DNA from: an uncultured Candidatus Saccharibacteria bacterium
GTDB taxonomy: Bacteria > Patescibacteriota > Minisyncoccia > Phycocordibacterales > UBA918
Reading direction: 5' to 3'
DNA: 64,000 nt
Assembly (NCBI GenBank): GCA_964469295.1
Contig: CAYXYJ010000003.1
Span: forward strand, 12,595 to 76,594
The position numbers and the translations under genes were made by a program. This document shows positions 9,567-59,738 of the stretch, one piece after another (position 1 is the stretch's first letter; each line of letters begins with the position of its first letter). The notes under the pieces are model-generated. The model saw nothing but the letters and a program-made list of their open reading frames with translations. It had not been told where the DNA came from and searched no databases.

Positions 9567-9582
9567 TACGCATAGCGTCTAG

Positions 9583-9719: not shown

Positions 9720-9747
9720 TTGCAATTTTGGCAGAATATGCTATAAT
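9720..9747 (+). promoter_or_regulatory. Sigma-70-like promoter TTGCAA-16nt-TATAAT upstream of rpsO
   Basis: ttgcaattttggcagaatatgctataat leaves a ~100-nt leader before rpsO. rpsO leaders are classically autoregulatory. Confidence 0.5.
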
Positions 9748-9847
9748 GGTAGGAACCTTCGCAGGTTACTATTTGATAGTTACTGTGCCAGCATTGTGAT
9801 ACGGTGCGGGTATCTACACAATAACTATCCTCAATACCATCAATTTT

Positions 9848-10114
9848 ATGTTAAGCAAACGCGTTAAAGAAAACGTTCTCAAACCAGTAAAACGTCACGA
9901 TACTGACACCGGATCACCAGAAGCACAAGTGGCTCTTTTGACTCGTCAGATTGAAGAGTTATCGACTCACCTTCGTAAACACAAAAAGGATTTTCACTCT
10001 CGTCGTGGATTGTTGCAATTGGTAGCAGATCGCCGCAAGCAACTAAAATACCTCGAACGAAAAAATGAGGCCACGTATACTGGACTCATTGAAAAACTCG
10101 GTTTGAAGCGCTAA
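9848..10114 (+). CDS. rpsO: 30S ribosomal protein S15
   Basis: [50 protein letters not shown] is the canonical S15 sequence. Confidence 0.92.
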
Positions 10115-10214
10115 CAGTATTGCTCCATTTGGAGCAATTTGTTTTTTAAGCAAAAAAGCATATCATAAGCGAAGGAGTAGAATTTTTATACAAACACACT
10201 AGTTAATTTTATAT

Positions 10215-10799
10215 ATGGGAATCATTAGACATCCCGAGCAACGCGTTGCCGTGCTCATTGATACACAAAATTTGTATCACAGTGCCAAAAATTTATACAA
10301 ATCGAAAGTAAACTTCGGGGCTGTGGTGAAAGCAGCTGTCGGCGAACGAAAACTGATTCGCGCGTTATCATACGTCGTGAATACTGAAACCGGGGAAGAA
10401 GCGCCGTTTTTTGACGCCCTTGAGAAAGTAGGGATTGAAGTGAAGACGAAGGATTTACAGATATTTTTTGGTGGTGCTAAAAAAGCGGATTGGGACGTAG
10501 GCCTGGCCATTGACGCTATTAAGCTCGCTCAAAAAGTCGACGCTATTATTCTCGCTACCGGCGATGGCGACTTTGTGCCTTTAGTCGAATATGTAAAAAG
10601 CCAAGGATGCCAAGTGGAAGTTATTACTTTTGGTCGGTCAGCTTCGGGACGATTGCGTGATGTAGTGGATGATTTTATTGATCTTGACGAAAATCCACAC
10701 GAATTTTTGATTGGAGCAAAAATTCGTACTCGTGGCGGCGGAAATGGAAAACTTCGTAAACAAATTAAACAAATTGTTGGCACAGATACCGATGACTAA
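10215..10799 (+). CDS. NYN/LabA-like (PIN-related) domain protein
   Basis: RVAVLIDTQNLYH...ILATGDGDFVPLV is the NYN/LabA pattern. It is inserted between rpsO and pnp. Confidence 0.65.
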   Translation: MGIIRHPEQRVAVLIDTQNLYHSAKNLYKSKVNFGAVVKAAVGERKLIRALSYVVNTETGEEAPFFDALEKVGIEVKTKDLQIFFGGAKKADWDVGLAIDAIKLAQKVDAIILATGDGDFVPLVEYVKSQGCQVEVITFGRSASGRLRDVVDDFIDLDENPHEFLIGAKIRTRGGGNGKLRKQIKQIVGTDTDD

Positions 10800-10885
10800 A
10801 CGTGGGACACGGGTATCGTTATCTGTATTCTAGCAACTTCTATCCGCGGTGACTTGCCAGTTTGGGATGGTGGTTGCTATGCTAT

Positions 10886-10908
10886 GAGGGCGGCCTACGG
10901 CCGCCCTC
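10886..10908. terminator. GC-rich hairpin gagggcggcc-tac-ggccgccctc between the NYN gene and pnp
   Basis: A perfect 10-bp stem followed by T-rich sequence. It is one of a recurring family of gggcgg/ccgccc palindromes in this window. Confidence 0.5.
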
Positions 10909-11007
10909 TTCGCTATTATTTATTCACCCACAAGTGTCCGAGGTCGATAGGTTTCAACCATTTGAAATCTAAAACTTCGGACTCTTTGGTTTTACTTCAA
11001 AGTTTTC

Positions 11008-13128
11008 ATGATTACCGAACGTTACGAGATGTCATTTGCTGGGCGGCCGTTAATAATTGAATATACTGATCTCGCCCACCAAGCCAATGGTTCAGTAATG
11101 GTGCGGTATGGTGACACGGTCATTCTCGTGACTGCGGTGATGGGACATACAGTGCAGCCGGATTTACCGTTTTTTCCGCTGTCAGTAGAGTTTGAAGAAA
11201 AATTTTATGCCGCCGGGGCGATTCTAGGTAACCGGTTTCAACGACGGGAAGGGAAACCGAGTGATGAAGCCATTTTAAGTGCCAGAATAGTTGACCGTAC
11301 CATCAGACCATTATTTGACCACCGACTACGTCGTGACGTGCAAATCGTAGTGAGCGTCCTGGCTATCGGTGACGATGATCCAGATATTTTAGCAGTCATC
11401 GGCACGTCATTGGCTCTCGCCAGCTCCAATATCCCTTGGAATGGGCCAGTGGGGGCAGTGCGGATTGCTAAACGCAAAGATACTGGTGCGTTATTGCTCA
11501 ACCCAACCTATACCGAACGGAATGCTGGTCCTTTTGAATTTGAAGTGTTGTCTTGCGGAAAAGGGGGTACTATTAATATGATTGAAACCGCCGCCTACGA
11601 AGTAAGTGAGGACGATATTGTCACTGTTCTTGAAGCAGCGATGACTCTCCACCATGACCTCGTATCATTTCAAAACGAAATCCTGGCCCAACGAACACTC
11701 CCAGTCAAATATGTCATTCCCGCATCACTGCCGCATAATGAAATGGAAACGTTATTCCGTGATACGTTTGCTACCAAATTGGGCGCCACACTGTTCTCTA
11801 ATCAACCCGGGAAACGACACCTCCATACCCTAAAAGATGAGTGGGTTGCCGCCACAGAAGCATTGCCAGATGCCCCAAGTAGCCGAGTAGCCGAAGTGTT
11901 TTTTGAAGAGATGATTAATGATGCCATTCATGTTGGAGCGATTGAATTTGGGAAACGTGCTGATGGTCGAGAGCTTGACGAAGTCAGACCTCTCTATGCA
12001 CAAGCGGGAGGTATTTCGCCAGTCCTTCATGGTTCAGGCATTTTTTATCGTGGTGATACTCATATATTAACCGCACTAACGCTGGGTGGGCCTGGCGACG
12101 CGCAAATCATCGATACCATTGAAGACCGATCATCAAGCAAACGGTTTATGCACCACTATAACTTTCCGCCGTTTTCAGTGGGAGAAACCGGTCGTGTTGG
12201 GGGATTTAACCGACGAATGATCGGACACGGTGCTCTCGCAGAAAAAGCCTTAGTGCCAGTGATTCCCGACCAAGCGACGTTTCCGTACACCATTCGACTC
12301 GTATCTGAAACCATGGCCAGTAACGGATCAAGTTCAATGGGGTCAGTGTGTGGCAGTACTCTGGCGCTCATGGATGGCGGTGTGCCCATTACTCGACCGG
12401 TGGCTGGCATTGCTTCGGGAGTCATGATTGACGGTGATCGGTACGCGTTGTTAACAGATATCCAAGGCCCAGAGGACGAACATGGTGATATGGATTTTAA
12501 AGTGGCCGGTACTCGCGTCGGTATTACCGCCATCCAGATGGATGTAAAAGTAGGCGGTATTTCTTTACCCATCCTAACGGGGGCATTAGAAAAAGCCCGC
12601 CTCGCACGACTCCATATTCTTGATACCATTGAAGCCACCATTGCAAAGCCACGCCCACACCTTTCACCCCGGGCGCCGGAAATTATTTCACTAACGATTG
12701 CTCCCGAACAAATTGGGTTAGTCATCGGCAGTGGTGGCAAAACTATTAATAAAATCAAAGACGATAGCGGTGTTGAAGATATTTCTATTGAAGATTCTGG
12801 AATCGTATTCATCACCGGAAAAAACGGCAGTGCCAGTGTCGCCGCCAACCATATTCGTGCGCTCACCAGAGTGTATACCGTAGGCGAAGAAGTCACCGGC
12901 CCCGTTACACGACTAGCCACCTTTGGTGCTTTTATAAAAATTGACGACCGCAACGAGGGATTGGTTCATATTTCGGAAATCGCCCCAATTCGCCTCGATA
13001 CAGTTGAACGGGTGTTGACCATTGGTGAAACTGTCCGCGCGGTTGTCGTCAAAGTAGAAGATGGAAAAATTGGACTATCGATTAAAAAAATTGATCCTGA
13101 CTTCGCCAAACGTAAGGGGATTGAATAA
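11008..13128 (+). CDS. pnp: Polyribonucleotide nucleotidyltransferase (PNPase)
   Basis: 706 aa with two RNase PH domains and C-terminal KH and S1 domains (ISLTIAPEQIGLVIGSGGKTI..., EEVTGPVTRLATFGAFIKI). It follows rpsO in the classic arrangement. The true start may be the internal Met at 11029. Confidence 0.95.
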   Translation: MITERYEMSFAGRPLIIEYTDLAHQANGSVMVRYGDTVILVTAVMGHTVQPDLPFFPLSVEFEEKFYAAGAILGNRFQRREGKPSDEAILSARIVDRTIRPLFDHRLRRDVQIVVSVLAIGDDDPDILAVIGTSLALASSNIPWNGPVGAVRIAKRKDTGALLLNPTYTERNAGPFEFEVLSCGKGGTINMIETAAYEVSEDDIVTVLEAAMTLHHDLVSFQNEILAQRTLPVKYVIPASLPHNEMETLFRDTFATKLGATLFSNQPGKRHLHTLKDEWVAATEALPDAPSSRVAEVFFEEMINDAIHVGAIEFGKRADGRELDEVRPLYAQAGGISPVLHGSGIFYRGDTHILTALTLGGPGDAQIIDTIEDRSSSKRFMHHYNFPPFSVGETGRVGGFNRRMIGHGALAEKALVPVIPDQATFPYTIRLVSETMASNGSSSMGSVCGSTLALMDGGVPITRPVAGIASGVMIDGDRYALLTDIQGPEDEHGDMDFKVAGTRVGITAIQMDVKVGGISLPILTGALEKARLARLHILDTIEATIAKPRPHLSPRAPEIISLTIAPEQIGLVIGSGGKTINKIKDDSGVEDISIEDSGIVFITGKNGSASVAANHIRALTRVYTVGEEVTGPVTRLATFGAFIKIDDRNEGLVHISEIAPIRLDTVERVLTIGETVRAVVVKVEDGKIGLSIKKIDPDFAKRKGIE

Positions 13129-17509: not shown

Positions 17510-18613
17510 TTAAAAAGGATTTTTAGCGCCACGCACTTCAAAGTGTAGGTGGGGGCCAGTTGATTTGCCCGTATTACCCGAAGCACCAATTACTTCACCA
17601 GCCGTTACATAATCACCAACTCCAACAGTATTTGCTGACAGGTGAGCATAAAGTGACTGTGTGCCGTTAGCATGTTTGATTACAATGTATTGTCCATACC
17701 CACCGTTCCAGCCCGAACTTTTCGATACAATTACTTCACCGGCGGCCGCCGCGCGAACTGACGTTCCAATAGAAACTCCAAAGTCAACCGCATTATAGCC
17801 ATGGATACCCTGAGTCTTAATCGCTCCCGGCACTGGATGAGAGAAGCCGGTAGTGGTTTTGTTACTACCAACACTAGCGGTGACTTTTGCTGGTACCGCC
17901 GTATGCAGTGCACCACCCGGAATTACCAATGTCATACCAACCGTTAAATCACTTTCATTGGTTAATTGGTTGAAACTAAGAATTTCTTCTTTTTTGCCAT
18001 CATATTTCTTGGCAATTGAATCAATGGTGTCACCAGACTTCACCACATGCCGCACTCCTTCAACCGGTAATATAATCAAGGTCTGTCCTGGCTTTATCGC
18101 TTTAGCACTCGCTAAATCGTTCGCCCATAAAATAGTATTGGTGGTCACATCAAACATTTCCGCGATCATCGATAATGAATCTCCATCACGAACTGTGTAG
18201 ACACTAATTTCACCATTATTGCGGTTACTGCTCATTTCGTCTTTTCCTACCGGACCAGTAGCCACCAACGCTCCATCAGTGGCTAAAATGTCCGCTCCAC
18301 CACGAGCATTATTCGGATCAGCATTAACGGCGGCCGTTAACACGGGTGTATCTAACACCAAATCAGTCTTGATAACTTCTGGAAAAGCCACCGCATCAGT
18401 AGTCGTTTCATTAAACAAAGAAAAAACCCCAGCATGTACCGATAATGGAATCACCACGGCGATTAGACCAAGGATACATTCTATAACAATAGAAGCTGAC
18501 TGTGGGGCCTTGTGGTATGTCTGTACAATCGAACGAACGGAAAGACCGGTCGGTACATCATGGGGTTGAGGTTGAATAGAGGTTCTTTTATGGACACGCC
18601 GCACTGCTGTCAT
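17510..18613 (-). CDS. LysM-domain M23-family peptidoglycan metalloendopeptidase
   Basis: Two LysM repeats (YTVRDGDSLSMIAEMF..., HVVKSGDTIDSIAKKY...) plus an M23 core (HGYNAVDF...GNTGKSTGPHLHFEVR). N-terminal TM anchor. Confidence 0.85.
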   Translation of the reverse strand: MTAVRRVHKRTSIQPQPHDVPTGLSVRSIVQTYHKAPQSASIVIECILGLIAVVIPLSVHAGVFSLFNETTTDAVAFPEVIKTDLVLDTPVLTAAVNADPNNARGGADILATDGALVATGPVGKDEMSSNRNNGEISVYTVRDGDSLSMIAEMFDVTTNTILWANDLASAKAIKPGQTLIILPVEGVRHVVKSGDTIDSIAKKYDGKKEEILSFNQLTNESDLTVGMTLVIPGGALHTAVPAKVTASVGSNKTTTGFSHPVPGAIKTQGIHGYNAVDFGVSIGTSVRAAAAGEVIVSKSSGWNGGYGQYIVIKHANGTQSLYAHLSANTVGVGDYVTAGEVIGASGNTGKSTGPHLHFEVRGAKNPF

Positions 18614-24219: not shown

Positions 24220-26400
24220 ATGTTGTCGCGTCTTTTTGCAAAACCGCTTACCCGCACCATCTGTATTGGGTTTTTTGTCGGAATTTGTTTATTTTTTGTT
24301 GGGACAATCGTCGTTTCGGCCCAAGTTACTCCTAATAGTGACTATCAGGTCGTACAGTGTACAGGTGAGGAATGTTCCAGTGGGCTGCTGAAATGGTTAT
24401 TGGATTTCGTGATTGTGGTATTTGGTAGTTTAGTGGGACTATTCGGTTCTGCTTTTGACTGGTTTATTGGTAATTTTATCATTGATTTTGGCCTTCATTA
24501 TCAATCAAGCAACTTCGGGGCAGTGATTGACGGAGTCTGGTCGACTGTTCGGGATATTTTCAATTTGACTTTTATTTTTGGTCTTATATATATCGGTTTT
24601 CAAATTATTTTGGGTACCAATGATTCTCAGGCCAAAAAAACCATTCCCATGTTGATTTTGGCGGCTCTCCTCGTTAATTTCAGTCTCTTTATTACCAAAT
24701 TTATCGTAGATTTTTCCAATATCGCTGCAGTGGAGGTCTATCAATTATTTGAAAGTTCAGCGAATGCCTATGGTAGTAGCGTTGGTGGCTATGGCGGAGC
24801 CAGTATTTCGCAAGCCTTTATGAATGCCCTCGGTATCTCTTCGCTTTTTGGTCAATTACCAGCCGGAGCAGAGTTGCTCTACATTTTTGGCATGCTGATT
24901 GTGTTTTTAGTCCTTATTTATGTGTTTCTGGCCGGCGCCATTTTAATTGCTATCCGGTTTGCAATGTTATCTTTGTACCTTGTATTTTCACCCGTAATGT
25001 TTATTGGGTGGGTATTTCCAGGATTTAATAAATATCAACAACAATTTTGGAGTGGATTCTTAGGTCAAGCATTTTTTGCTCCGGCGTTTTTATTCATGTT
25101 GTATTTGTCTTACCAAATTGTCTCGACATTTAGCGGAGATACTCACACTAATTTTAATACATTAACTGTTAGCAATGGGAGCACCGTTACGAGTGGATTT
25201 TTGGCGGTAATGCCACTATTTTTAATGACGGTGGTTTTTTTACTCGCTTCTATGGCTGTCGCCAAAGGCATGAGTCGCCAAGGCTCAGAATACGCGGTCA
25301 AAGGCGTTGATTGGATGTACAAAAAGGGAATGGGTGCGGTGAAGGGTGCCGGGCAAGCAGTTTCTTATGTCCCACGTGCTGGTGCACGATATGGAGTTAA
25401 TAAAACTGGCGAATGGAGTGAAAAGAAACTTAATAGTCTGCAAGCACGGGATGGAAAATTAGGTAAACTATTAAGTACAAACGCCGTGGATAAAGCGTTG
25501 AGAGGTGGAACAACAAAAATGCAGAAAGCCGAAATGGGTACGGGTACTACAAACAAAGCCGAGAAGGAATATAGAGCAATTACCACTAACCGTAATGCGG
25601 GTCTACAAGAAAAGAAGTCTCGTGAAGCGGCGATTGCTACCGCCGCGGCGAATTTTGCTGAACTTGATGCGTTACGCAATAAACCAAACCGTACTAATAA
25701 TGAAACAAATCGATTAATTTCTCTTGAAACTGAGGCTGCTCAAGCTCAAAATTATATTAATCAACTTGACAAGGGTGAAATCGAAAAACTCGACAAAACT
25801 ACGCGTAAGGCATACGCAACTAAATTTAATGCCGATCAAATGAAACATATTCTCGATAGCGAGAAAATTACAAATGACGAAAAGGAATCAATTATTGAAG
25901 CCCGAAGAGAGAAAATTAGAAACAACACGACATCACCTGGCAACATCATGAAGTTGACTCGCGACGAACTTGAGACATTGGGATTTGATTGGATGACAAA
26001 TAATGTCCAGAATTTAACACACTCTCAATTTGATGATTATATTAAAAACAATAAAAAACTCACTCCTGAATTAGTTAATTCATTCAAGTCAGTTAGAGAA
26101 TCGAAGATTTTGCAATCCATTGAAGACGGCTCTGCGGGTGGTTTACTGACCGAATTGAAAAAGAAACCAAAAGAATTTGCTCAGTTACCCAAACAAGTTT
26201 TCACAGATAGACGCTATGTAAATATTATCCCTTACCTGACCGTTGGAGTACTTGAACAAATTGCGCACGAGAGAATTCTTGATCAAAATCAACGGTTTGC
26301 TATAAAAGGATTTTTGACTCATGGCGGACGCGGTAGTACCCCAACTGAAGTGATTGCATATTTAAGTTCAGATAAAGGAAAAGAATATTATGGACCATAA
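24220..26400 (+). CDS. Polytopic membrane protein, VirB6/TrbL-like candidate, with long C-terminal coiled-coil extension
   Basis: A signal/TM segment and at least six TM helices fill the first ~350 aa. A ~370-aa charged coiled-coil tail follows. GGAGG RBS 8 nt upstream. The architecture is that of VirB6-like channel subunits, but sequence similarity cannot be verified here. Confidence 0.4.
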   Translation: MLSRLFAKPLTRTICIGFFVGICLFFVGTIVVSAQVTPNSDYQVVQCTGEECSSGLLKWLLDFVIVVFGSLVGLFGSAFDWFIGNFIIDFGLHYQSSNFGAVIDGVWSTVRDIFNLTFIFGLIYIGFQIILGTNDSQAKKTIPMLILAALLVNFSLFITKFIVDFSNIAAVEVYQLFESSANAYGSSVGGYGGASISQAFMNALGISSLFGQLPAGAELLYIFGMLIVFLVLIYVFLAGAILIAIRFAMLSLYLVFSPVMFIGWVFPGFNKYQQQFWSGFLGQAFFAPAFLFMLYLSYQIVSTFSGDTHTNFNTLTVSNGSTVTSGFLAVMPLFLMTVVFLLASMAVAKGMSRQGSEYAVKGVDWMYKKGMGAVKGAGQAVSYVPRAGARYGVNKTGEWSEKKLNSLQARDGKLGKLLSTNAVDKALRGGTTKMQKAEMGTGTTNKAEKEYRAITTNRNAGLQEKKSREAAIATAAANFAELDALRNKPNRTNNETNRLISLETEAAQAQNYINQLDKGEIEKLDKTTRKAYATKFNADQMKHILDSEKITNDEKESIIEARREKIRNNTTSPGNIMKLTRDELETLGFDWMTNNVQNLTHSQFDDYIKNNKKLTPELVNSFKSVRESKILQSIEDGSAGGLLTELKKKPKEFAQLPKQVFTDRRYVNIIPYLTVGVLEQIAHERILDQNQRFAIKGFLTHGGRGSTPTEVIAYLSSDKGKEYYGP

Positions 26401-27127: not shown

Positions 27128-27538
27128 ATGCAGTTTGAAACACCACAATTTATTGAAATTGATGATAAAATCTTTGGCCCCTTAACATGGAAACAATTTC
27201 TTTATGTATTTGGTGGTGGCATTATGACCTTGGTGCTTTTTTTCATGGTACCATTTATTGTCTTTTTACTCATTGGGGTACCGATCGCCGCTCTTTCTGC
27301 CGCTTTGGCGTTTTACCCCATTAACAATCGACCTTTCGAGAATTTTCTCGAAGCGATGTTTAATTATTTTAGTCGGCAGCGGCTGTATCACTGGCAACAA
27401 AAGAAGAATGTCGTGTATCGCGATACTGACACCACCAGTGTTCACAATCCTATTCTCACCGATACCCTCATGAAAAAACGCGACATCAGTGCGATTGCCC
27501 GCCGACTGGAAATTGATGCCATTCAAAAGAAACAATAA
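27128..27538 (+). CDS. Small two-TM membrane protein, VirB3/PrgI-like candidate
   Basis: 136 aa. IEIDDKIFGPLTWKQFLYVFGGGIMTLVLFFMVPFIVFLLIGVPIAALSAALAF shows two hydrophobic helices immediately upstream of VirB4, the conserved VirB3-VirB4 order. Confidence 0.4.
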   Translation: MQFETPQFIEIDDKIFGPLTWKQFLYVFGGGIMTLVLFFMVPFIVFLLIGVPIAALSAALAFYPINNRPFENFLEAMFNYFSRQRLYHWQQKKNVVYRDTDTTSVHNPILTDTLMKKRDISAIARRLEIDAIQKKQ

Positions 27539-27543: not shown

Positions 27544-28167
27544 ATGGCCAATTCTTCTACCGCTACCCAAGATTTTGTTCCAATCCGTGATATCCAAAAC
27601 GGGATGGTGATTCTTAAAAACGGCCAGTTATGCAAAGTCCTCCTCGCTTCATCCATCAATTTTGCGTTGAAATCAAGTGATGAACAACGAGCTATTTTGT
27701 TTCAGTTTCAAAACTTTCTTAACACGTTAGATTTTTCGATACAAATTTACGTCCAGTCACGACGGCTAAATATCGAACCATACATAGCAAACCTTGAAGC
27801 GCTCGAACCTATCCAATACAACGATTTGATGCGAGTGCAGTTGCGTGAATACATTGAATTTATCCGCACGTTTACCACCGAAGTGGACGTCATGAGTAAA
27901 AATTTCTTTCTCGTTATTCCGTACACGGCGCCCCGTATTGATATTAAAAAAAGCGTTGCTAGTGTACTTGGTCGTGGGAAAATTCTGGAAACAAACACTC
28001 TTGAAGAGCAACGGTTGCAACTTGAACAACGACAATCAGTCGTCGAACAAGGATTAAATCGCATTGGTGTTCGTACCATCGAATTAAATACCGACGAATT
28101 GGTCGAGTTGTTCTATCACATATACAACCCCACTGATGTCACCGGCGCCGCGCCTAAGGTACAATAA
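27544..28167 (+). CDS. VirB4/TrbE-family ATPase, N-terminal domain piece (split gene or frameshift)
   Basis: DFVPIRDIQNGMVILKNGQLCKVLLASSINFALKSSDEQRAILFQFQNFLNTLDFSIQIYVQSRRLN matches the conserved N-terminal region of Gram-positive-type VirB4 proteins. It stops 5 nt before the ATPase ORF, which is in another frame. Confidence 0.55.
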   Translation: MANSSTATQDFVPIRDIQNGMVILKNGQLCKVLLASSINFALKSSDEQRAILFQFQNFLNTLDFSIQIYVQSRRLNIEPYIANLEALEPIQYNDLMRVQLREYIEFIRTFTTEVDVMSKNFFLVIPYTAPRIDIKKSVASVLGRGKILETNTLEEQRLQLEQRQSVVEQGLNRIGVRTIELNTDELVELFYHIYNPTDVTGAAPKVQ

Positions 28168-28172: not shown

Positions 28173-29969
28173 ATGGGACTATTCGATAAACTTGCGGGCA
28201 ATAATAACACCAGCCCCATTGAAAACGTCAGCGAGGGGTTATTAACCCTCACCGATGTGATTGCGCCGTCAGCAGTATCCATCGGACCACGTAGTGTCAA
28301 TATCAGTGGTACCATTGCTCGGGTATTTCATGCGGTGGCGTACCCGCGGTTTCTTACTGATGGTTGGCTTGAACCAATTCTAAATCTCGAAAAGGAACTG
28401 GATGTATCGATTGTCATTCATCCCATGGATACCGCCGAAACGTTAAAACGCCTCCAGAAAAAAGTGGCTGAAGTCCAGAGCCAAATCAACGTGCGCGCCA
28501 GTAATGGTCAAGTGCGTGACCCCCAACTCGAAGCCGCCTATCGCAACATCGAAGATCTCCGCGACAAATTACAACAATCGGAAGAAAAAATGTTTAAGGT
28601 GGGATTGTACATTGCGATTTATGGCGATTCTGATACCAAAGTAAACAAAGTGGAAAATGATATTAAAGGGATTCTCGATTCACGGTTAATCTACATCAAG
28701 CCGAGCCTCTTTAAACAAGAGCAGGGGATTCATAGCGTGTTGCCAACTGCCACCGATGAGCTCCTCGAACACAGCCAATTTAATTCTTCACCCTTATCTA
28801 GTTTCTTTCCGTTTACCTCATTTGATCTCACCTCTGATAACGGCATTTTATACGGTATCAATCGTCACAATTCCTCACTCGTGCTCTTTGATCGTTTTTC
28901 TCTGACGAACTACAACTCCGTGACGTTTGCTACCTCTGGTGCCGGGAAGTCATACAGTATCAAACTGGAAATTCTCCGGTCACTCATGTTCGGAACGGAA
29001 GTCATCGTCATCGATCCCGAACGAGAATATGAATATCTCGCCGAATCAACTGGCGGCCGCTTCTTTAATATTTCACTGTCTTCCGAGCACCACATCAATC
29101 CGTTTGATATTCCACCACCCAGTGATGATGAGGAACCTGCCGACGTATTACGATCGCAAATTGTTCATTTAATTGGCTTATTCCGTTTGATGCTTGGTGG
29201 TCTATCGCCTGAGGAAGAAACCATTATTGATTTGGCCGTCCGGGAAACGTACGCACTTAAAGATATCACTGAGCAGAGTAATTTTGCTGAACTCGAACCA
29301 CCGTTGTTATCGGATTTTGAAATGGTACTCGCTGGGATGAACGGGAGCGGGTCACTTATCAGCCGGCTACAAAAATACACCTCGGGTACCTGGTCTGGGT
29401 TTATGAACCAACCAACCAACGTTGATATCAACCAAAAATTTGTCGTCTTTAGTCTGCGTGACATGGAAGACGAATTAAAGACCATCGCCATGTTTATTAT
29501 CACCAACTACATTTGGGCCGCCATTCGGCGGCGGTTGGTAAAGCGTCTTCTCGTCATTGATGAAGCGTGGTGGATGATGAAATCCGAAGATACCGCTTCG
29601 TTTTTATTCTCGCTTGCAAAACGCGGCCGTAAATATTATTTGGGTATCGCAACTATTACCCAAGACGTGGACGATTTTTTGCGTTCTCCCTATGGTGTGC
29701 CGATGATCACGAACTCTTCGCTCCAATTTCTGATGAAGCAGTCACCGACGGCGATTGATAACATTCAACGGACTTTCAATTTAACGGATGAAGAAAAGTA
29801 CCTGTTACTCGAATCCGATGTGGGGGAAGGGCTTTTCTTTGTAGGATTGAAACACGTCGCCATCAAAGTCATCGCCTCCTACACCGAAGACCAAATCATT
29901 ACGTCCGATCCGTCGCAATTGCTCAAAATTCAAACCGCTCGACGCGAATTACGCAAACGTGGTGTGTAG
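28173..29969 (+). CDS. VirB4/TrbE-family conjugal transfer ATPase (C-terminal two-thirds)
   Basis: IAPSAVSIGPRSVNISGTIARVFHAVAYPRFLTDGWLEPIL (VirB4 pattern); Walker A TSGAGKSYS; Walker B LLVIDEAWWMM. The upstream in-frame region stays open back to 28158, consistent with a -1 frame change joining it to the N-terminal piece. Confidence 0.8.
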   Translation: MGLFDKLAGNNNTSPIENVSEGLLTLTDVIAPSAVSIGPRSVNISGTIARVFHAVAYPRFLTDGWLEPILNLEKELDVSIVIHPMDTAETLKRLQKKVAEVQSQINVRASNGQVRDPQLEAAYRNIEDLRDKLQQSEEKMFKVGLYIAIYGDSDTKVNKVENDIKGILDSRLIYIKPSLFKQEQGIHSVLPTATDELLEHSQFNSSPLSSFFPFTSFDLTSDNGILYGINRHNSSLVLFDRFSLTNYNSVTFATSGAGKSYSIKLEILRSLMFGTEVIVIDPEREYEYLAESTGGRFFNISLSSEHHINPFDIPPPSDDEEPADVLRSQIVHLIGLFRLMLGGLSPEEETIIDLAVRETYALKDITEQSNFAELEPPLLSDFEMVLAGMNGSGSLISRLQKYTSGTWSGFMNQPTNVDINQKFVVFSLRDMEDELKTIAMFIITNYIWAAIRRRLVKRLLVIDEAWWMMKSEDTASFLFSLAKRGRKYYLGIATITQDVDDFLRSPYGVPMITNSSLQFLMKQSPTAIDNIQRTFNLTDEEKYLLLESDVGEGLFFVGLKHVAIKVIASYTEDQIITSDPSQLLKIQTARRELRKRGV

Positions 29970-29983: not shown

Positions 29984-30634
29984 ATGGCCGAACCGCGCTA
30001 CCAAACTATCGATAGTGATTTTCGTGATGAGCAAGAAAAGCGAACTGGATTTGGCATCAGAAACGCTCAAATGCAAACCGGCAACGTACGCCAACAACCA
30101 AGACAATTAATGGCAGAAGAGGGGAAATCCCCAACACCAACCCGACCAGGGAAAATGAGTGTCCCAAAATCAAGCGCTTTCGGTAGTCCAAAAAAACTGG
30201 CGGTTAATCGAGCCAAAGCAACAGCCACCACCCTCCAAATCGTATTATGGGCCGTTGTGCCATCGTTTTTTGTGTTTATTGTCTGCATTGTTTGTTTAAT
30301 AACCTTTGGTGCCTACAATATGACCCCAACCTGGATTCAAGAAGGGGTAAACAAAGTAGCATATATACTCGGTTGGCAACAAGACGTCCTCCAAACGTTG
30401 TTTTGGATTACGTATATCATACAAATGGTAACGGTCCTTACTATCATGGCTGGTGTTGTTGCTCATTATTCCATTCGGGGTGTCCGGTGCTTGGGGGGAA
30501 GAGAGGCTGGTGTGTTTAAAAAAATGATTTTTGGCATGATGGCTGTTTTTTGTTTTATTCCAGGCACGCCGATACTTGTCATACCAATTTTTGGTACCTG
30601 TTGGATGTTATTGGTTTGCGCCTATCCCAACTAA
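29984..30634 (+). CDS. Hypothetical membrane protein (4 predicted TM helices)
   Basis: An N-terminal ~90-aa soluble basic region is followed by four hydrophobic helices. Confidence 0.4.
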   Translation: MAEPRYQTIDSDFRDEQEKRTGFGIRNAQMQTGNVRQQPRQLMAEEGKSPTPTRPGKMSVPKSSAFGSPKKLAVNRAKATATTLQIVLWAVVPSFFVFIVCIVCLITFGAYNMTPTWIQEGVNKVAYILGWQQDVLQTLFWITYIIQMVTVLTIMAGVVAHYSIRGVRCLGGREAGVFKKMIFGMMAVFCFIPGTPILVIPIFGTCWMLLVCAYPN

Positions 30635-30675
30635 CCACTCGTAGAGTGACTAGTCGATTGCTATACTTATGATGT

Positions 30676-31638
30676 ATGCGATTGTTATGTAGCCTGTTCA
30701 TTTTGATGTGGGTGTTGCCCCTGACTACCAACGCTCAATTTACGCAATCATTGTTTAATGAGCAATTTGCTATTTCGGTATCGCCACAATACCCGAATCC
30801 TGGCGACACCGTCACCGCAACAGTGAATGATTATTCACTTGGTGCTACTGGTGGTTCAATTGCCTGGTTTATTGACGGGAAAGCGGCTACATCAAGCGTG
30901 AACGCTCGATCAATCACCTTTATTGCGGGGGCACCACTTACTCCCACAACCGTGCGTGCTGATTTACGGCTCGGTACCGGGGAAGTATTAACTGCCTCAC
31001 AAACTATCGTCCCACGCTATCTCGATATCATTGTCGAACCACAGACATATGTACCACAATGGTATAGTGGTCGCGCTTTACCCACCAACGGATCTTTGGT
31101 GCGACTTACGGCACTGCTCCACGGCCAAAATGGCCCAGTTGACCATACGGCCTATACGTATACTTGGAAAGTAAATAATAATGTCATTGGCGGTGGTGGG
31201 GTTCGCGGTGGCTACCAAACCACTTACACCGTCCCGATTGGACAATCACACTTGGTATCTCTAGAAATTACCGATACTACCGGTCGGATGGTGAGTAAAA
31301 AAAATATCACAGTCGGTACCGGCGAAGTTGACGCAGTTTTATATGAAGCCAACCAACTCTATGGTCTCGGTCACCGGGCCATCGGGAATAATCGTGTCAT
31401 GACTGGAAATTCATTAACCATTGAAGCCGTTCCTTATAATCTTGATCTGCGAGCGTTATACGGCAACATTTTTACTGAATGGAAAATTAACAATCAAAAA
31501 GTCACTGAAGTGGGTAAAAGTCCTTTTACCATTACTCTCGGTCGACAGGGTTTTGGTGCGGTAACCTTAGGTTTCAAGGTACGAAATCCTGACGCCCTCC
31601 TCCAGGGTGACGAAGTCAGTACGGTATTACAATTTTAA
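30676..31638 (+). CDS. Hypothetical secreted beta-rich protein
   Basis: MRLLCSLFILMWVLPLTTNAQ is a signal peptide; 320 aa. Confidence 0.4.
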   Translation: MRLLCSLFILMWVLPLTTNAQFTQSLFNEQFAISVSPQYPNPGDTVTATVNDYSLGATGGSIAWFIDGKAATSSVNARSITFIAGAPLTPTTVRADLRLGTGEVLTASQTIVPRYLDIIVEPQTYVPQWYSGRALPTNGSLVRLTALLHGQNGPVDHTAYTYTWKVNNNVIGGGGVRGGYQTTYTVPIGQSHLVSLEITDTTGRMVSKKNITVGTGEVDAVLYEANQLYGLGHRAIGNNRVMTGNSLTIEAVPYNLDLRALYGNIFTEWKINNQKVTEVGKSPFTITLGRQGFGAVTLGFKVRNPDALLQGDEVSTVLQF

Positions 31639-31640
31639 TT

Positions 31641-32819
31641 ATGAAAAAGATTTGGCTTTTTATCCTTGGCGGTATCCTCATCATTGTATTGGGAGGATTT
31701 TGGATATACAGTTTTCTCTATGGCAGTACTAGTAACAGTAGTGCTGTCTTTACCGATTTTAATCTCTTTGGTGGCAATGACACCCCAATAGTCACCGAGC
31801 CACTGCCACCACCAGTCACGGAAACACCAACCGTTGATGTCGCCAGTGCACCATTGCGACAATTAACGACGAGACCAGTCATTGGTATGCGGGCGATTAC
31901 TGTTGGTACCACTACCGTTATGCGGTATGTCGAAGCGGGTACCGGACATGTCTTTGCGATTGATTTAACCACAGGCGCCGAAACGCGAATTTCACAAATT
32001 TCGGTACCGGTGGCTAGTGAAGCGGTGTTCAGTCCGAGTGGCCAATACGTCGCCATTCGTTCTGGGTACGATACCACCAACGAAGTGAGTGTTATCAATC
32101 TTGATGCCATGACGCCAACATCTACCGTTTTGCCGTACCAAATTGAAGATGTTACCTTCGGGTACAATAACCAACTGTGGTTTACCGAATTTGTGAGTGG
32201 TAAAACGGTTGGAAAACAGTACGACCCTACCACTCGGCTCACAACAAATTTATTCACTATTCCATTTACGGCCGTCACCATTGAATGGAGTACCAGCAGC
32301 AGTACACCGCACTACGCGTATACCAAACCAGCGCCAGATTTTATTGGGTATGGCTACGAAATTAAAAATGGTGGCATCGTGCGCCTACCCTATAGTGGCT
32401 ACAATGTACGACTTTATAGTGTCAACGCTGGACTGGTTATTACCAAATCAGAAGGGGTAAATGGCCAAATAGCAAGCTATTTCTATCATGGTGATGATAA
32501 CGGTAGCCGATCAGTCTATCCAATTTTGGGCCACGAAAAATGTGTGTCCCTGACTCGAACCGGAGTATTTTGCGCCACCAATGACAATACGTATCAAAAC
32601 AGCACTCAACTCACCCGCTGGAGCATGGGGGTATTGTCAAGTTCTGACACCTTGTATCAAATTGGTTTCAGCGGATCGGCACAACGGATATTGGAATTAA
32701 AAACGGAAACTGGTCGAGATATTGATGTCATGAATATGGACAAAACAATCGACGGGAAAATGGTATACTTTACCAACGCCAACGATAAAACCCTGTGGGT
32801 CTATGACATCGATAATTAA
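31641..32819 (+). CDS. Hypothetical N-terminally anchored extracytoplasmic protein
   Basis: KKIWLFILGGILIIVLGGFWIY is an anchor followed by a beta-rich domain. Directly follows the previous gene (TAATTATG). Confidence 0.4.
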   Translation: MKKIWLFILGGILIIVLGGFWIYSFLYGSTSNSSAVFTDFNLFGGNDTPIVTEPLPPPVTETPTVDVASAPLRQLTTRPVIGMRAITVGTTTVMRYVEAGTGHVFAIDLTTGAETRISQISVPVASEAVFSPSGQYVAIRSGYDTTNEVSVINLDAMTPTSTVLPYQIEDVTFGYNNQLWFTEFVSGKTVGKQYDPTTRLTTNLFTIPFTAVTIEWSTSSSTPHYAYTKPAPDFIGYGYEIKNGGIVRLPYSGYNVRLYSVNAGLVITKSEGVNGQIASYFYHGDDNGSRSVYPILGHEKCVSLTRTGVFCATNDNTYQNSTQLTRWSMGVLSSSDTLYQIGFSGSAQRILELKTETGRDIDVMNMDKTIDGKMVYFTNANDKTLWVYDIDN

Positions 32820-33945
32820 CCGCGGTACATTTTTTGTAGCTGGCCTCATTACCATTATCTGGTGTGGTTTTTTTACTGTAGCTTTGGCTGCTGACTATGT
32901 ACCACTCGTGAATATCCCGGCGGTCGCCAACCCCAACAACATCAACGACTATATTAACGCGTTATATAATTTATCGATTAGTATCGCGGCCTTGATTGCG
33001 GTGGTCAAGATTGTTATCGCTGGTGCCAAGTGGATGTTTGGAAGTACTTCGATTAGTAGTATTCAAAGTGCGAAACAAGACATTCAAAATGCGTTAATTG
33101 GGTTGTTGATTATTATTGGTGCCGTGTTGATTCTAAATACTATCAATAGCGATTTGACCAACCTCACCATTTTTGATGAAAGTGATAGGGTAGTGGTAAA
33201 TGATACGCCGTCCAATGGTTTGTTTGTCACTATGGATCAAATAAAGGCAGCTTGTGAAGAAAATCCTGAGGCTATGGATTGTAGCCTGGAAATACGTTGC
33301 AATGACAATGACATTGGTAACTTCATTTTTGGTAGCGCGTTTTGGGGAAATATGGAATATATAACTAATCCCAACGATATTAGCTTAAGTTGTGGAGTGA
33401 TTTGCAAAAACATCGGTGGATATATGGATTACGGCTTGGCAATAGACGGAACAGACGCAAAGTGCCATATCAGTAAAACTTTAATGAACAATTTAATTAG
33501 CGACTATTTTGAAAAATTAGTGACAGATCAATGCTCATCTGGACGGGTTGATGGTGAAATCTGTCAGATTGAACTTTGTAGTGAACACGACTTAAACAAT
33601 AATACCTACAATGGAAATAGCCAACAAGATTTTAGTAGATGCGAAGCAGAATGTCTAGAAGAAAGACAGGGCTCTTATTTTGACACTCGTAGTGGTGCTT
33701 GTATATTTACGGGTGATTATTACCTGACCGAGGAAGAATGTTCGGAACGCGTTCATATGACCTGGTCTGACGAAGAAAATGTTTGTTATGACCAAACCAC
33801 GACTCAAAGCATTGCGTGTGATTTCTTTGAAAGTACTGGTACCTATGATTGTAGTATAGCGAGAGGCGAGTGTATTGATAATACTGATGTACCAGGAACA
33901 CCAGTTACCGCTGCCGACGGGCGATCTATTTACTGTGTACAGTAG
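32803..33945 (+). CDS. VirB2/TrbC-like pilin-type module fused to a ~260-aa Cys-rich extracellular domain
   Basis: Signal peptide ending ALA-ADY, then two hydrophobic helices (LSISIAALIAVVKIVIAGAKWMF and ALIGLLIIIGAVLILNTI). This is the classic T4SS pilin topology in the first ~125 aa. A domain with more than 20 Cys follows (CEENPEAMDCSLEIRCNDND...CIDNTD...). Overlaps the upstream gene by 17 nt. Confidence 0.4.
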   Translation: MTSIINRGTFFVAGLITIIWCGFFTVALAADYVPLVNIPAVANPNNINDYINALYNLSISIAALIAVVKIVIAGAKWMFGSTSISSIQSAKQDIQNALIGLLIIIGAVLILNTINSDLTNLTIFDESDRVVVNDTPSNGLFVTMDQIKAACEENPEAMDCSLEIRCNDNDIGNFIFGSAFWGNMEYITNPNDISLSCGVICKNIGGYMDYGLAIDGTDAKCHISKTLMNNLISDYFEKLVTDQCSSGRVDGEICQIELCSEHDLNNNTYNGNSQQDFSRCEAECLEERQGSYFDTRSGACIFTGDYYLTEEECSERVHMTWSDEENVCYDQTTTQSIACDFFESTGTYDCSIARGECIDNTDVPGTPVTAADGRSIYCVQ

Positions 33946-43330: not shown

Positions 43331-43880
43331 ACTCAATCTCTTCTTCCGTGCTATCAGCAGTGGTGAAAATTTCCTGTACGTCTTCTTGTTCTTCAATCGC
43401 TTCGATTAATGAGGCCAGCTTTTCGCCATCAGCATCAGACAGTTCAAGCGGATTTTGTGGAATATACCCGTCAGCCGTTTTGGTAAAAGCCCACATCGCT
43501 GTGCCAGGTGTGCCCAAGGTGAGTCCTTGTTTGGTAAAGATGTGGCGAATTTCGGGCGATGTGCGGTTGTTATTGTCCGTGACGGCAGTAATAATCATCG
43601 CGACGCCACCGGGGCCGAAGGCTTCAAAGACCACCTCTTCGAGATTGGCGCCGCCCGCGCCGGCACCTTTGGCGACGGCGCGATCAATGTTCTCTTTGGG
43701 CATAGAATCTTTTTTGGCCCGGTCAATCACTGCAATCAGTCCTGGTGAGGTCAGGTTCCCGTTACATTTGCGCGATTCCATGGCAATCAAGGCCGCGTGT
43801 TTGCTAAATACCTTACTCTTCTGTGCATCGGTCGCCGCTTTCTTGTGTTTAATCTTTGACCATTTGTTATGTCCACTCAT
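43329..43880 (-). CDS. YebC/PmpR-family probable transcriptional regulatory protein (short variant)
   Basis: MSGHNKWSKIKHKKAATDAQKSKVF... is the YebC N-terminus. At 183 aa it appears to lack roughly 60 aa of the usual middle region. Confidence 0.75.
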   Translation of the reverse strand: MSGHNKWSKIKHKKAATDAQKSKVFSKHAALIAMESRKCNGNLTSPGLIAVIDRAKKDSMPKENIDRAVAKGAGAGGANLEEVVFEAFGPGGVAMIITAVTDNNNRTSPEIRHIFTKQGLTLGTPGTAMWAFTKTADGYIPQNPLELSDADGEKLASLIEAIEEQEDVQEIFTTADSTEEEIE

Positions 43881-43922
43881 GCCCGTTTTTCTTAAGAGCG
43901 TAGCGAATTAGAAAAACGAGGC

Positions 43923-45432: not shown

Positions 45433-45479
45433 AAACGACAAACGCGGACGGCCCAAAGGGCCGTCCGCGTTTGTCGTTT
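45433..45479. terminator. Terminator aaacgacaaacgcggacggccc-aaa-gggccgtccgcgtttgtcgttt
   Basis: A perfect 22-bp palindrome directly after the pilB stop. Confidence 0.8.
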
Positions 45480-47209
45480 TACACGATGTGAGAAAAAAAG
45501 TCGTCATCATGGTCATCGCTTTTTGTATCCGTCACGACGCGCCGACTTTGATTAACATCAACAACCCGTTCCAATTCGTCAAACGTCGTCAGGCCAGATA
45601 ATACTTTAATTAATCCATCTTGAAGCATGGTGGGAATATGTTGTGGCAAGGCTGCGTCAAGTATCATGTGTTCTCGTGGGTCACGAATGACAATGTCTTC
45701 CACTCGATCATCCATCGCAATAGCTTCAAATACGCCGACCCGACCAGAAAATCCAGTATGACCACACGCATCACAACCGACACTGTCGTACACCACCGTA
45801 TGACCATCTATTGTTACTGGCTCGGGGTAAGAACTCAGTGCTTTTTTTGCCATGGTAATTTCTTCGGTTGAAATTACTCGGGGTTTTTTACAGTGTTCAC
45901 AGAGAACGCGAACCAAACGTTGCCCTAACATAATATTAAGTGAACTACTAATAATACGAGGGTCAACGCCTAAATCAATTAAGCGAGGGAATCCACCGGC
46001 GGCGCTGTTGGTGTGGAGGGTAGAGAAGACAAGGTGTCCCGTTTGAGCGGCGTGAATCGCCGTTTCCGCTACTTCACGATCACGGATTTCGCCAATCATA
46101 ATGATATCGGGGTCTTGACGTAAAATCGCTCGCAAGCCTGACGCAAAAGAATAATCTGGACCGGTTTGGGTTTGTACAATACCATCAAGTTTATATTCAA
46201 CCGGGTTTTCAATCGTAATGATTTTTTTCTCACTATCATGTACCGCCCGTAAAAAGGCATACAGCGCAGTGGTTTTTCCGGAACCAGTTGGGCCGGTGGT
46301 AATAATGAGTCCGTTTGGACGTTTTAACTCTTGTTCCATTCTGGCCCGTAAAAACGGATTAAGGGCCAGTTTATCCATACTGAAACTGGCTACTCCCGGA
46401 TCAAGTAATCGCATAACGATTGATTCGCCGACAGCGCCCGGAATGATTGAACTACGTACTTCAATGGCTCGTTCGCCAAACACAAATTCAAACCGACCAT
46501 CCTGGGCTTCTTTCCGTTCGTTTAGCCGCATGCCCGACAGTAATTTCAAACGTGACATCAAGCGACCGTACAAATGATTGTCAATAGTGGCGACATCTAA
46601 AAGCACACCATCAAGACGATATCGTAAACGAATATGTTGTTCGGTTGGTTCAATATGAATATCTGAAGCACGCAACGCGAGGGCTCCGGCAAACATCAGT
46701 TCGAGAGTTTCGGAAATGCGGCGCGGACTATTAATGCGTGATACCGTATCAATAGCGGTGGCGACATCCTCGATGTTTTCCATGGTATGTGCGCGTCGCA
46801 AAATATCATCAGGATTGATATCCAATACCCCTTTTTTGCTTGCGGTGGTGGTTTTTTGGTCAGCATATCGGGCCAATCCGTGATCAATACTGGCGGTAGA
46901 GGCGATGTGGGGTAGCACGGTAAAGCCCTTTTTTTCTAGGAGCGCCAAGGCGGCTTTGGTAGCAGTATCATTCGGGCGATTAACTGCTACTGACAAAGTA
47001 TTCCGCATTAACGCAAAGGCCACCAGCCGTGATTCTTTGGCAGTTCGTTCAGGAATTTTCATGAGTGCTTCGGGATTGATGGTGACACCAAATAAATTGA
47101 CATACGGAATCCCGTACTGTGGTGCCAGGGCACGCAAATATTCTTCTTCGCCCCGTTTTCGTAAATCAGCGATGTGCGAAAGAGCGTTTGTATCATTAAA
47201 ATCTACCAT
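45479..47209 (-). CDS. Type II/IV secretion system ATPase GspE/PilB family
   Basis: N-terminal T2SSE_N-like domain, Walker A GPTGSGKTT, Asp box, Walker B, and a CxxC...CxxC tetracysteine motif (CEHCK...CDACGHTG); 576 aa. No other pil or gsp genes adjacent. Confidence 0.85.
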   Translation of the reverse strand: MVDFNDTNALSHIADLRKRGEEEYLRALAPQYGIPYVNLFGVTINPEALMKIPERTAKESRLVAFALMRNTLSVAVNRPNDTATKAALALLEKKGFTVLPHIASTASIDHGLARYADQKTTTASKKGVLDINPDDILRRAHTMENIEDVATAIDTVSRINSPRRISETLELMFAGALALRASDIHIEPTEQHIRLRYRLDGVLLDVATIDNHLYGRLMSRLKLLSGMRLNERKEAQDGRFEFVFGERAIEVRSSIIPGAVGESIVMRLLDPGVASFSMDKLALNPFLRARMEQELKRPNGLIITTGPTGSGKTTALYAFLRAVHDSEKKIITIENPVEYKLDGIVQTQTGPDYSFASGLRAILRQDPDIIMIGEIRDREVAETAIHAAQTGHLVFSTLHTNSAAGGFPRLIDLGVDPRIISSSLNIMLGQRLVRVLCEHCKKPRVISTEEITMAKKALSSYPEPVTIDGHTVVYDSVGCDACGHTGFSGRVGVFEAIAMDDRVEDIVIRDPREHMILDAALPQHIPTMLQDGLIKVLSGLTTFDELERVVDVNQSRRVVTDTKSDDHDDDFFSHIV

Positions 47210-54050: not shown

Positions 54051-55025
54051 TTGGTGTGCATAAATATGGCGATATTTTACGCCGTAATTTCGTATACTTA
54101 CGGTATGGATATCGATACATCAGACGCAGTGATTTATGAAAAGAAACAGCTCCCTAAAGGGGTAAAAAAATGGGGATTTATTATCATTTGTACCGTTGGA
54201 GTAGTCGCTGCGTTGTGGTATGGCTGGCGGTGGAATAGCGAACGGGAAATCACCGCTTTGCAGGAAGGTCTCTCACTGGTTGAAGTACCCCCAGAGATGA
54301 TTCACCAGCAACCGGTAGGATATTTGGTGTATGAAGCACCGGATAATTTTTTACCTAAATCACTGGCCGAGCAATTTAACATGATGCCGGGTGAAACTAC
54401 GAACCTAGCGAGTGAAGACGATGAAGAATTGTCTCTCGTGCGTGATAATGACGATGCTCCAATAATTGCGAAAACTACTCCTGAATTGCCAAAACTGTGG
54501 TGGATGCGTGATATCCGTAACAATCTCGATATTCAGGTTGCTGCTGACGACGTCCGGCTAGAAACAACCAATAATTGGTCTATTGAAAATGGTGCCGTGA
54601 TGCGTCGTAACGATGACGGCACGGTGGCGTCGTATGTGCGCGAGGGCGACAATACGCCATTGACGCACTCACTCATCACATCCTCATATGATGAGAGTTA
54701 TATATTTGTAGCCAATCAGCAAATGAATACGCTTACGGTGTATGCGGTGGATCCAGAAAGACCACTCTTGCCGTTGGTCTATACGACGACAGTCGCGCAT
54801 GGCGATATTGTATCAATAACAACCGCACCGGATTTAAATCGGGTAGTCATCGTCACGACCAATAAAATCGGCACTTTCCTTTCGTATTATGATGCGTACA
54901 GCGATCGGGTGATTAAACAAGAACAGTTAGCAGATATGGCCACTCCGGTGACATTATTGGATTGGGTAACAATTAATCCTGTCGCTTCAGATTTACTTGA
55001 AGTAATTGAAGTGGAAGGAAATTAA
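54051..55025 (+). CDS. N-terminally TM-anchored extracytoplasmic beta-rich protein (hypothetical), module copy 1
   Basis: KWGFIIICTVGVVAALWYGW is an anchor. Stop overlaps the start of the giant gene (TAATG), indicating translational coupling. Confidence 0.45.
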   Translation: MVCINMAIFYAVISYTYGMDIDTSDAVIYEKKQLPKGVKKWGFIIICTVGVVAALWYGWRWNSEREITALQEGLSLVEVPPEMIHQQPVGYLVYEAPDNFLPKSLAEQFNMMPGETTNLASEDDEELSLVRDNDDAPIIAKTTPELPKLWWMRDIRNNLDIQVAADDVRLETTNNWSIENGAVMRRNDDGTVASYVREGDNTPLTHSLITSSYDESYIFVANQQMNTLTVYAVDPERPLLPLVYTTTVAHGDIVSITTAPDLNRVVIVTTNKIGTFLSYYDAYSDRVIKQEQLADMATPVTLLDWVTINPVASDLLEVIEVEGN

Positions 55026-59737: not shown

Positions 59738-59738
59738 T

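Follow-up and report, generated by a model that had tools for sequence, protein, structure and literature searches.

A stretch of 64,000 nucleotides from an uncultured Candidatus Saccharibacteria bacterium (contig CAYXYJ010000003.1; 'the window' below) contains a 380 aa open reading frame (ORF) at 32803..33945 on the forward strand, which is the last gene of a co-directional type IV secretion system (T4SS) block near the replication origin. This gene probably encodes a modular VirB2-like pilin, in which a conserved membrane hairpin is followed by a hypervariable, disulfide-bonded scaffold displayed for host contact. The three components of family identity, membrane topology and disulfide scaffold are, taken jointly, put forward with high confidence. 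Polymerization of the hairpin and display of the tail, also taken jointly, are proposed more tentatively and may well not hold.

The ORF begins with ATG and shares 17 nt at its start with the preceding gene (31641..32819). A 19-residue hydropathy scan revealed three hydrophobic segments, at aa 8−36, 50−81 and 92−119, and an AlphaFold2 model based on a 116-sequence alignment placed helices at residues 3−24, 47−79 and 84−114 with a mean predicted local distance difference test (pLDDT) score of 75.2. From the hydropathy, the first helix and inspection of the sequence, aa 1−29 (32803..32889, +) are predicted to be a signal peptide with R7 in the n-region, a hydrophobic core and A-L-A at residues 27−29 followed by A30, the standard context for signal peptidase I. 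The mature protein would then be 351 aa in length, including a 256 aa extension beyond the pilin module. The module itself (aa 30−124; 32890..33174, +) comprises a conserved mature N-terminus (..VPLVNIP..), helix 1 (aa 47−79), a basic loop, helix 2 (aa 84−114) and a conserved end motif, ILNTINSDLTNLTI. Its limits were drawn from the Pfam match, a weak NCBIfam match, near-invariant alignment columns, the AlphaFold2 helices and the ends of pilin-only relatives. Between the two long helices, K76 and K91 are the sole basic residues, while acidic residues (D31, D49, D117, D125, E126 and D128) flank the hairpin. By the positive-inside rule, this charge distribution implies a cytoplasmic loop and a mature hairpin with its two ends outside, so that hydropathy, charges and modelled helices together fit the signal peptide, two-helix hairpin, basic loop and external termini of a pilin. 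Beyond the module lie an acidic, probably flexible linker (aa 125−143; 33175..33231, +), recognized by pLDDT values of 45−58 and by clustered strain differences, and a Cys-rich acidic ectodomain (aa 144−380; 33232..33942, +), recognized by Cys spacing, the tail alignment and the AlphaFold2 model.

It is scarcely credible that the feature is a chance ORF or a mis-joined fusion, as this was ruled out by the existence of 122 homologues, the equal position of the gene in five syntenic loci and the purifying selection acting on it. The homologues, returned by a database search, range from 220 to 520 aa, and in their source records some carry the names 'pilin' or 'Type IV secretion system pilin'. 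The closest named relatives among GTDB species representatives are metagenome-assembled genomes (MAGs) of Ca. Kaiserbacteria, Paceibacteria and Parcubacteria. Of the aligned relatives, 111 of 116 matched PF18895 (T4SS_pilin; E<=0.01) and 16 of 116 matched TrbC. The consensus of the N-terminal module scored 42.2 bits on PF18895, for which the cut-off is 26.6. The protein scored 21.1 bits on PF04956 TrbC/VirB2 (E 3.8e-4, model positions 12−98 of 98) and the consensus 25.2 bits, both below the gathering score of 27.9 bits although the match was near full-length, from model position 10 or 12 to 98 of 98 for protein and consensus. No Pfam family other than these two pilin models was matched by the protein at E<=1, and the weak NCBIfam match was to a 'pilin-like conjugal transfer protein' of a mycoplasma integrative and conjugative element. 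Homology to members of the PF18895 family was found with E values down to 1e-47, and membership of this protein therefore rests on transitive homology, its own PF18895 score being sub-threshold. In the family alignment, about 30 positions of the hairpin show at least 90% conservation or do not vary at all. On this sequence evidence the N-terminal module probably belongs to PF18895, the T4SS pilin family of Patescibacteria, and appears to be a distant relative of TrbC/VirB2 at best. An earlier note, made from the letters of the window, had likened the module to T4SS pilins, and the family matches together with the adjoining VirB4/PrgI/VirB6 cluster bear this out.

The tail of ~255 aa is hydrophilic and acidic (pI 4.05), with 43 Asp/Glu against 13 Lys/Arg and only 3 His. 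It contains 18 Cys in 261 aa (6.9%), compared to 0.9% over 54 ORFs of the window (binomial P = 5e-11), so that the ORF, signal peptide, hydrophobic hairpin and Cys enrichment described in the earlier note were all recovered by hydropathy, modelling and composition. Its count of '>20' or 'about two dozen' Cys was too high, since the whole protein has 19, the one outside the tail being C21 in the signal peptide. The short spacings are C-x3-C twice (197/201 and 280/284), C-x4-C once (254/259) and C-x5-C once (160/166). Thus, the C-x4-C spacing of the note was present, whereas its C-x-C spacing was not, and sequence inspection of the tail found neither C-x-C nor CxxC pairs. The Cys residues can be arranged as two six-Cys units, C151..C221 and C244..C300, followed by a more variable C-terminal part, C313..C378, with the pattern C-x5-9-C-x4-5-C-x8-30-C-x3-C-x13-28-C occurring twice. 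The internal repeat was not significant by sequence (z ~1.6; 159 of 2000 shuffles scored equally high), and the two-unit arrangement is therefore only suggested by the Cys spacing and by similar predicted helix-hairpin elements. The blocks of the tail were mostly modelled at pLDDT 70−89. In an alignment of 18 tails, 12 Cys were invariant and three more were present in at least 90% of sequences, at a mean column identity of 22%. A separate group of tails exhibited another Cys framework with CC doublets.

To extend the comparison, 167 non-redundant pilin-module proteins were compiled from the database hits and the ORFs of 85 fetched loci. Tails of at least 80 aa were present in 158 of these, with a median of 211 aa and 10 Cys. 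None of the 158 was free of Cys, the counts ranged from 2 to 48, and 151 (96%) had an even number (binomial p = 2e-36). Four observations favour disulfides over metal: Cys counts are even, Cys is conserved where the rest of the tail has diverged, the tail is predicted to be extracellular, and both His and CxxC are scarce. The tail Cys are probably disulfide-bonded. The alternative, that they bind metal ions or clusters, would find some support in the high Cys density and the two C-x3-C motifs. It is nevertheless very improbable given the predicted extracellular location, the three His residues, the lack of CxxC pairs, the prevalence of even counts over so wide a range and the lack of a match to any metal-binding family. 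Of the two forms of stabilization offered by the note, disulfide bonding thus fits and metal binding is unlikely.

No Pfam or NCBIfam family matched the tail, and none of the known Cys domains (EGF, knottin, CS-alpha-beta, zinc ribbons) was found in it by profile or fold. A structural analogue was likewise not found, the best Foldseek E values being 0.5 and 0.84 against the PDB and 0.31 against BFVD. When the tail alone was searched against 1.84 billion representative proteins, three matches were obtained, all fused to a pilin module. Profile searches of a word-indexed database with 7 and 18 tails returned two and three proteins, respectively, all already known and pilin-fused. Every detectable homologue of the tail is therefore fused to the pilin module, and the tails appear to define at least one new domain family without structural precedent. 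The absence of stand-alone tails is weak evidence, since the word index is apparently insensitive to the tail composition.

Three pilin-only relatives of 120−135 aa were identified, ending at ..ILNTINP.L.NLT[IL]. These ends coincide with the start of the tail in the present protein, where ILNTINSDLTNLTI is followed by FDESD. Of the two parts that the note had suggested looking for as separate genes, the pilin module was thus found by itself and the tail was not. One locus might be taken for a natural case of separate genes: in L033 (3243-4229), a 129 aa divergent pilin-like ORF is followed, after one in-frame TGA, by a 191 aa ORF with 12 Cys and no signal peptide. The two ORFs stand just before yidC in place of the long pilin, and represent either a nonsense-split pilin or a recoding event. 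Given the single in-frame TGA and the missing signal peptide, the split is probably a nonsense mutation or an assembly artefact, and L033 was not accepted as a separate-gene case.

Other relatives carry different cargo on the hairpin. In P0114 and P0119, a Peptidase_M15_4 or VanY domain (peptidoglycan peptidases) is C-terminal to it, while in locus L076 (Ca. Yanofskybacteria) a weak GH5-like region and a TIG domain are N-terminal; this cargo is not Cys-rich and stands in place of a Cys-rich tail. Locus L056 encodes Cys-rich regions on both sides of the hairpin, with 48 Cys. That cargo is found at either terminus agrees with the prediction that both hairpin ends are extracellular. As judged from the predicted proteins, a long Cys-rich tail is the rule in Patescibacteria relatives and this gene is typical of its lineage. 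The architecture, which the note had called unusual, is so in comparison with classical VirB2 but not in comparison with these relatives, given the 158 tailed proteins among 167. L076 was further seen to encode tandem proteins of 738 and 776 aa (8216-10432 and 10464-12794), both with large N-terminal domains before the PF18895 hairpin, the GH5-like and TIG regions being in the first. Three loci from MAGs labelled Gammaproteobacteria (L051, L056 and L067) encode pilin-module proteins of 517−631 aa with 40−48 Cys and with short Cys-Gly-rich motifs that are repeated. For Patescibacteria-type genes, the labels given to these three and to several 'Saccharibacteria' MAGs look taxonomically unreliable.

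The two parts of the protein differ markedly in their rate of change. Identity to the syntenic locus L001 was 92.5% for DnaA, 86.6% for VirB4 and 82% for the penicillin-binding protein, but 37.7% for the pilin, which could be aligned only over aa 28−302. Among relatives whose tails are unalignable, the N-terminal module retained 50−65% identity. A closer comparison was provided by a 98.8%-identical strain (L086), relative to which the pilin module showed no nonsynonymous changes, as was also the case for dnaA and yidC. The tail showed ~10 nonsynonymous and ~9 synonymous changes, a ratio of nonsynonymous to synonymous polymorphism (pN/pS) of ~0.28. Five of the eight amino acid replacements fell within the low-confidence linker at aa 130−140, and no Cys was changed. 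Based on this strain comparison, the tail is functional yet far less constrained than the hairpin, and the conservation of the hairpin suggests that it is more than a passive anchor.

The genes that precede the pilin gene encode the core of a T4SS. A VirB6/TrbL-like polytopic membrane protein of 726 aa with ~6 transmembrane (TM) segments (24220..26400, +) was assigned from its TM profile and because its syntenic orthologue in L002 matches PF19590 TrbL_3. It is followed by PrgI (VirB3-like; 27128..27538, +; PF12666, E 1.1e-9), a TrsD-like protein that resembles the N-terminal portion of VirB4 (27544..28167, +; NCBIfam TrsD and VirB4 N-terminal matches, with orthologues matching PF26593 TraC-like) and a VirB4-type ATPase of 598 aa (28173..29969, +; NF045971, 359 bits, above cut-off; P-loop_TraG). 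VirB4 is thus encoded as two ORFs 5 nt apart, a 207 aa TrsD-like N-terminal piece and the 598 aa ATPase. This split is a genuine arrangement rather than a frameshift, as all syntenic loci share it along with the ORF sizes. Between the ATPase and the pilin gene are three conserved genes without an assigned role, encoding 216, 320 and 392 aa (29984..32819, +), which were delimited from the ORF listing and TM profile and whose order and sizes are kept in L001−L005. No family assignment was obtained for these three proteins. The first has a disordered N-terminus, three TM segments and six Cys, the second a weak PKD/Ig-like match, and the third an N-terminal TM segment and faint beta-propeller-like matches. 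The 392 aa protein also showed a pN/pS of ~0.9 relative to the sister strain, from 12 differences only.

On the 3' side of the pilin gene, yidC and rnpA are encoded on the opposite strand, followed by dnaA and dnaN, with the dnaA start 1.6 kb from the pilin stop codon. ksgA (RrnaAD) is immediately upstream of the T4SS block. In five related loci from metagenomes or MAGs, the gene order matches, the gene sizes are near-identical and the pilin start has the same overlap; one of the five has two tandem long pilins. No match to a relaxase or type IV coupling protein (T4CP) family was found among the scanned ORFs of the window, and no second pilin-like ORF within its 64 kb. The neighbouring VirB4, TrsD, PrgI and VirB6 genes, whose order recurs in the five syntenic loci, together with the missing relaxase and T4CP and the proximity of dnaA, correspond to the gene content of the Patescibacteria MPF-FATA-like T4SS. 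The Patescibacteria T4SS has been published as a monoderm (MPF-FATA) type with TrsD, PrgI, VirB6 and VirB2-like pilins, usually without a relaxase (Quinonero-Coronel et al. 2025, PMC12102498), and often adjoining dnaA, dnaN, rnpA, ksgA and rpmH (PMC12102498). Gene content and order show that the T4SS lies near the origin, is inherited vertically and is of the monoderm-conjugation type, with this gene as its sole pilin-family member. The note had envisaged a tip or adhesin domain. Neither the cluster nor the window has another pilin gene, which makes a tip role unlikely, although display of the tail on a filament is plausible.

The following mechanism would account for these features. The precursor would be inserted by Sec/YidC and cut after Ala29, leaving a hairpin with a cytoplasmic basic loop and external termini, and the 18 Cys of the tail would pair into nine disulfides after export. 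In keeping with disulfide formation, MdbA-like oxidoreductases with an adjacent VKOR have been reported as an enriched family in CPR genomes (candidate phyla radiation; bioRxiv 10.1101/335083). The TrsD/VirB4 ATPase, PrgI and VirB6 would then extract the hairpin from the membrane and polymerize it into a pilus or a conduit spanning the cell wall. In the F pilus, both termini of TraA are outside and the inter-helix loop lines the lumen; the filament is 87 Å wide, with pentameric layers rising 12.1−13.2 Å (PMC5018250). In filaments of VirB2-type pilins both termini are exposed at the surface, and every subunit would therefore present its tail, on a linker of ~19 aa, as a sheath around the filament. 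If polymerization were F-like, each subunit would have ~660−720 Å2 of core surface and the decorated filament would be ~16−21 nm wide. By this volume estimate, such a filament would be sterically tight but feasible. The tail would act as a partner- or host-recognition surface, which would account for its divergence being far faster than that of the machinery.

Several observations weigh against such a displayed, pilus-forming subunit. The protein's own match to PF18895 (18.9 bits, E 1.6e-3) is below the 26.6-bit cut-off, and its match to TrbC is likewise below the Pfam gathering threshold. The family profile gave no match to PDB sequences at E<=10, and solved conjugative pilins were absent among the top Foldseek matches listed for the AlphaFold2 model. 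A footprint of ~660 Å2 per subunit is tight for the tail at a pilus surface, and to our knowledge no VirB2-type pilus carries a 28 kDa domain on each of its subunits. No oxidoreductase (DsbA, MdbA or VKOR) was found among the scanned ORFs of the window. No filament, polymerization or binding of any Patescibacteria VirB2-like protein was found in the literature searched. Finally, the tail pN/pS of 0.28 indicates relaxed purifying selection and does not demonstrate positive selection.

The same hairpin and tail could instead belong to a non-polymerizing surface protein, the hairpin tethering or docking the ectodomain at the T4SS channel as a cap, stalk or receptor-binding subunit. This is plausible, if considerably less probable than a polymerizing pilin, because monoderm T4SSs are generally without pili (PMC12102498; PMC12857230) and no filament of the VirB2 type was found for the CPR in the literature searched. 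The CPR filaments so far identified by cryo-electron microscopy, in one species, were Pam pili rather than VirB2 polymers (bioRxiv 10.64898/2026.03.03.709456); these belong to an unrelated system and were rejected as a match for the present gene. Such an anchor would also relieve the problem of a tail that is large relative to the pilus surface available per subunit, and the VanY, M15 and GH5/TIG domains of relatives would work equally well from it. It would not account for a hairpin conserved far beyond the needs of a simple anchor, for the existence of pilin-only members within the family or for the translational coupling of the gene to the VirB4-containing operon in every relative examined.

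Cleavage at ..NLT[IL] offers another explanation, by which a pro-protein would yield a short classical pilin and a soluble, disulfide-rich effector, toxin or adhesin. TrbC-type pilins provide an established precedent for processing at the C-terminus (RP4 TrbC/TraF), the pilin-only relatives stop exactly at this boundary, and the linker beyond it is predicted to be flexible and tolerates mutation. On the other hand, no TraF-like or other dedicated peptidase was recognizable in the T4SS cluster, a Sec-exported domain in a monoderm would need no pilin carrier, and stand-alone homologues of the tail were not found in the tail-only and profile searches. Release by cleavage is considered improbable, and the intact modular pilin is preferred over both alternatives.

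Compared to published systems, the closest likeness is to the VirB2-like pilins of Patescibacteria (PF18895; PMC12102498, PMC10633639), which share the profile family, as judged from the relatives and the family consensus, the TrsD/VirB4/PrgI/VirB6 partners, the dnaA/rnpA/ksgA vicinity and the lack of a nearby relaxase or T4CP. Those pilins have been treated as small VirB2-like proteins, a 2025 survey referring to their 'small size' (PMC12102498), whereas the present one has a long tail. In S. epibionticum, the pilins form an array (PMC10633639), as opposed to the single gene found here, and epibiotic growth requires the T4SS genes, those for pilins among them (Wang et al. 2023, PMC10633639; PMC12857230). 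The classical TrbC/VirB2/TraA pilins (PF04956; PMC5018250) resemble the protein in the signal peptide, the two-helix hairpin, the basic lumen/cytoplasmic loop and the VirB3/VirB4/VirB6 partners. They differ in their mature size, ~70−100 aa against 351 aa, and assemble into helical pili that usually contain lipid. The present protein also differs from them in its monoderm host, in having no cyclization or peptidase partner and in lacking a sequence match, or a Foldseek match among the top ones listed, to solved pilins.

The tail possibly works like TraN, a surface protein of the T4SS of F-like plasmids (PMC9246713). TraN has ~22 conserved Cys, which are all expected to form disulfides, and a variable region on which partner specificity depends. 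However, TraN is a separate outer-membrane protein of diderms, whereas the tail is fused to a pilin; a Pfam scan revealed no TraN homology in the tail, and the likeness is one of functional analogy only. The modular type 4 pilins PilB and PilC of Streptococcus sanguinis are reported to combine a pilin polymerization module with a C-terminal adhesive module (PMC9934059), which is the same design. They belong to an unrelated superfamily with a single N-terminal helix, a prepilin peptidase and an unrelated fold.

The T4SS, the pilin family and the origin-proximal location are already published, while the tail extensions are apparently undescribed, no account having been found in the literature searched. 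No mention of Cys-rich or enzymatic pilin extensions of 100−440 aa was found in the main Patescibacteria T4SS papers, including the supplements of one, and Patescibacteria T4SS pilins of a Cys-rich or modular kind were searched for in the literature without result. Reviews have singled out the pilins as an oddity of the monoderm system (PMC12857230), and a 2024 perspective (PMC11665869) described what the T4SS does in Saccharibacteria as 'completely unknown'. Most Patescibacteria 'VirB2-like pilins' appear to be hairpins with large, fast-evolving ectodomains that are either disulfide-scaffolded or enzymatic. As a speculative extension that is more likely wrong than right, these pilins may form a modular display platform, every subunit bearing outward cargo, with the pilus as an organ of host recognition and wall attack and the tails as host-range determinants. 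The cargo would here be a hypervariable disulfide scaffold, of which there are at least two recurrent Cys frameworks, and elsewhere a peptidoglycan DD-peptidase or a glycoside-hydrolase/TIG module. The tails are candidates for setting host specificity, and could serve as natural antigens or tags for locating the T4SS machine by microscopy. The gene in the window is an ordinary member of a lineage-wide pattern and as such of moderate interest, which would be higher if the display model were true across the family.

Some further features of the window and of the syntenic loci were noted. A candidate for a VirB1-like wall hydrolase is the LysM and Peptidase_M23 protein encoded at 17510-18613 (−), ~3 kb upstream of the T4SS block; such hydrolases have been reported to be associated with virB4 in Paceibacteria. 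A Cys-rich ORF of 187 aa between ruvC and ruvB (43348-43911, +) was considered as a VKOR and rejected, being of low complexity (Ser/Ala/Pro-rich), without a family match and probably spurious. Genes of a type IV pilus system are also present nearby, as indicated by a PilB/GspE-type ATPase (45479-47209, −; T2SSE and MshEN). Two proteins of 965 and 936 aa (55025-57922 and 59709-62519), each with an N-terminal TM or signal segment and with 17 and 16 Cys, respectively, are probably surface proteins; neither has a convincing Pfam family, except for a weak CARDB match in the 936 aa protein. In one relative (L003/L004, 11273-12189), a toxin-antitoxin-like pair of DUF6922 and AbiEii genes is located between the pilin gene and yidC, so this junction tolerates insertions.

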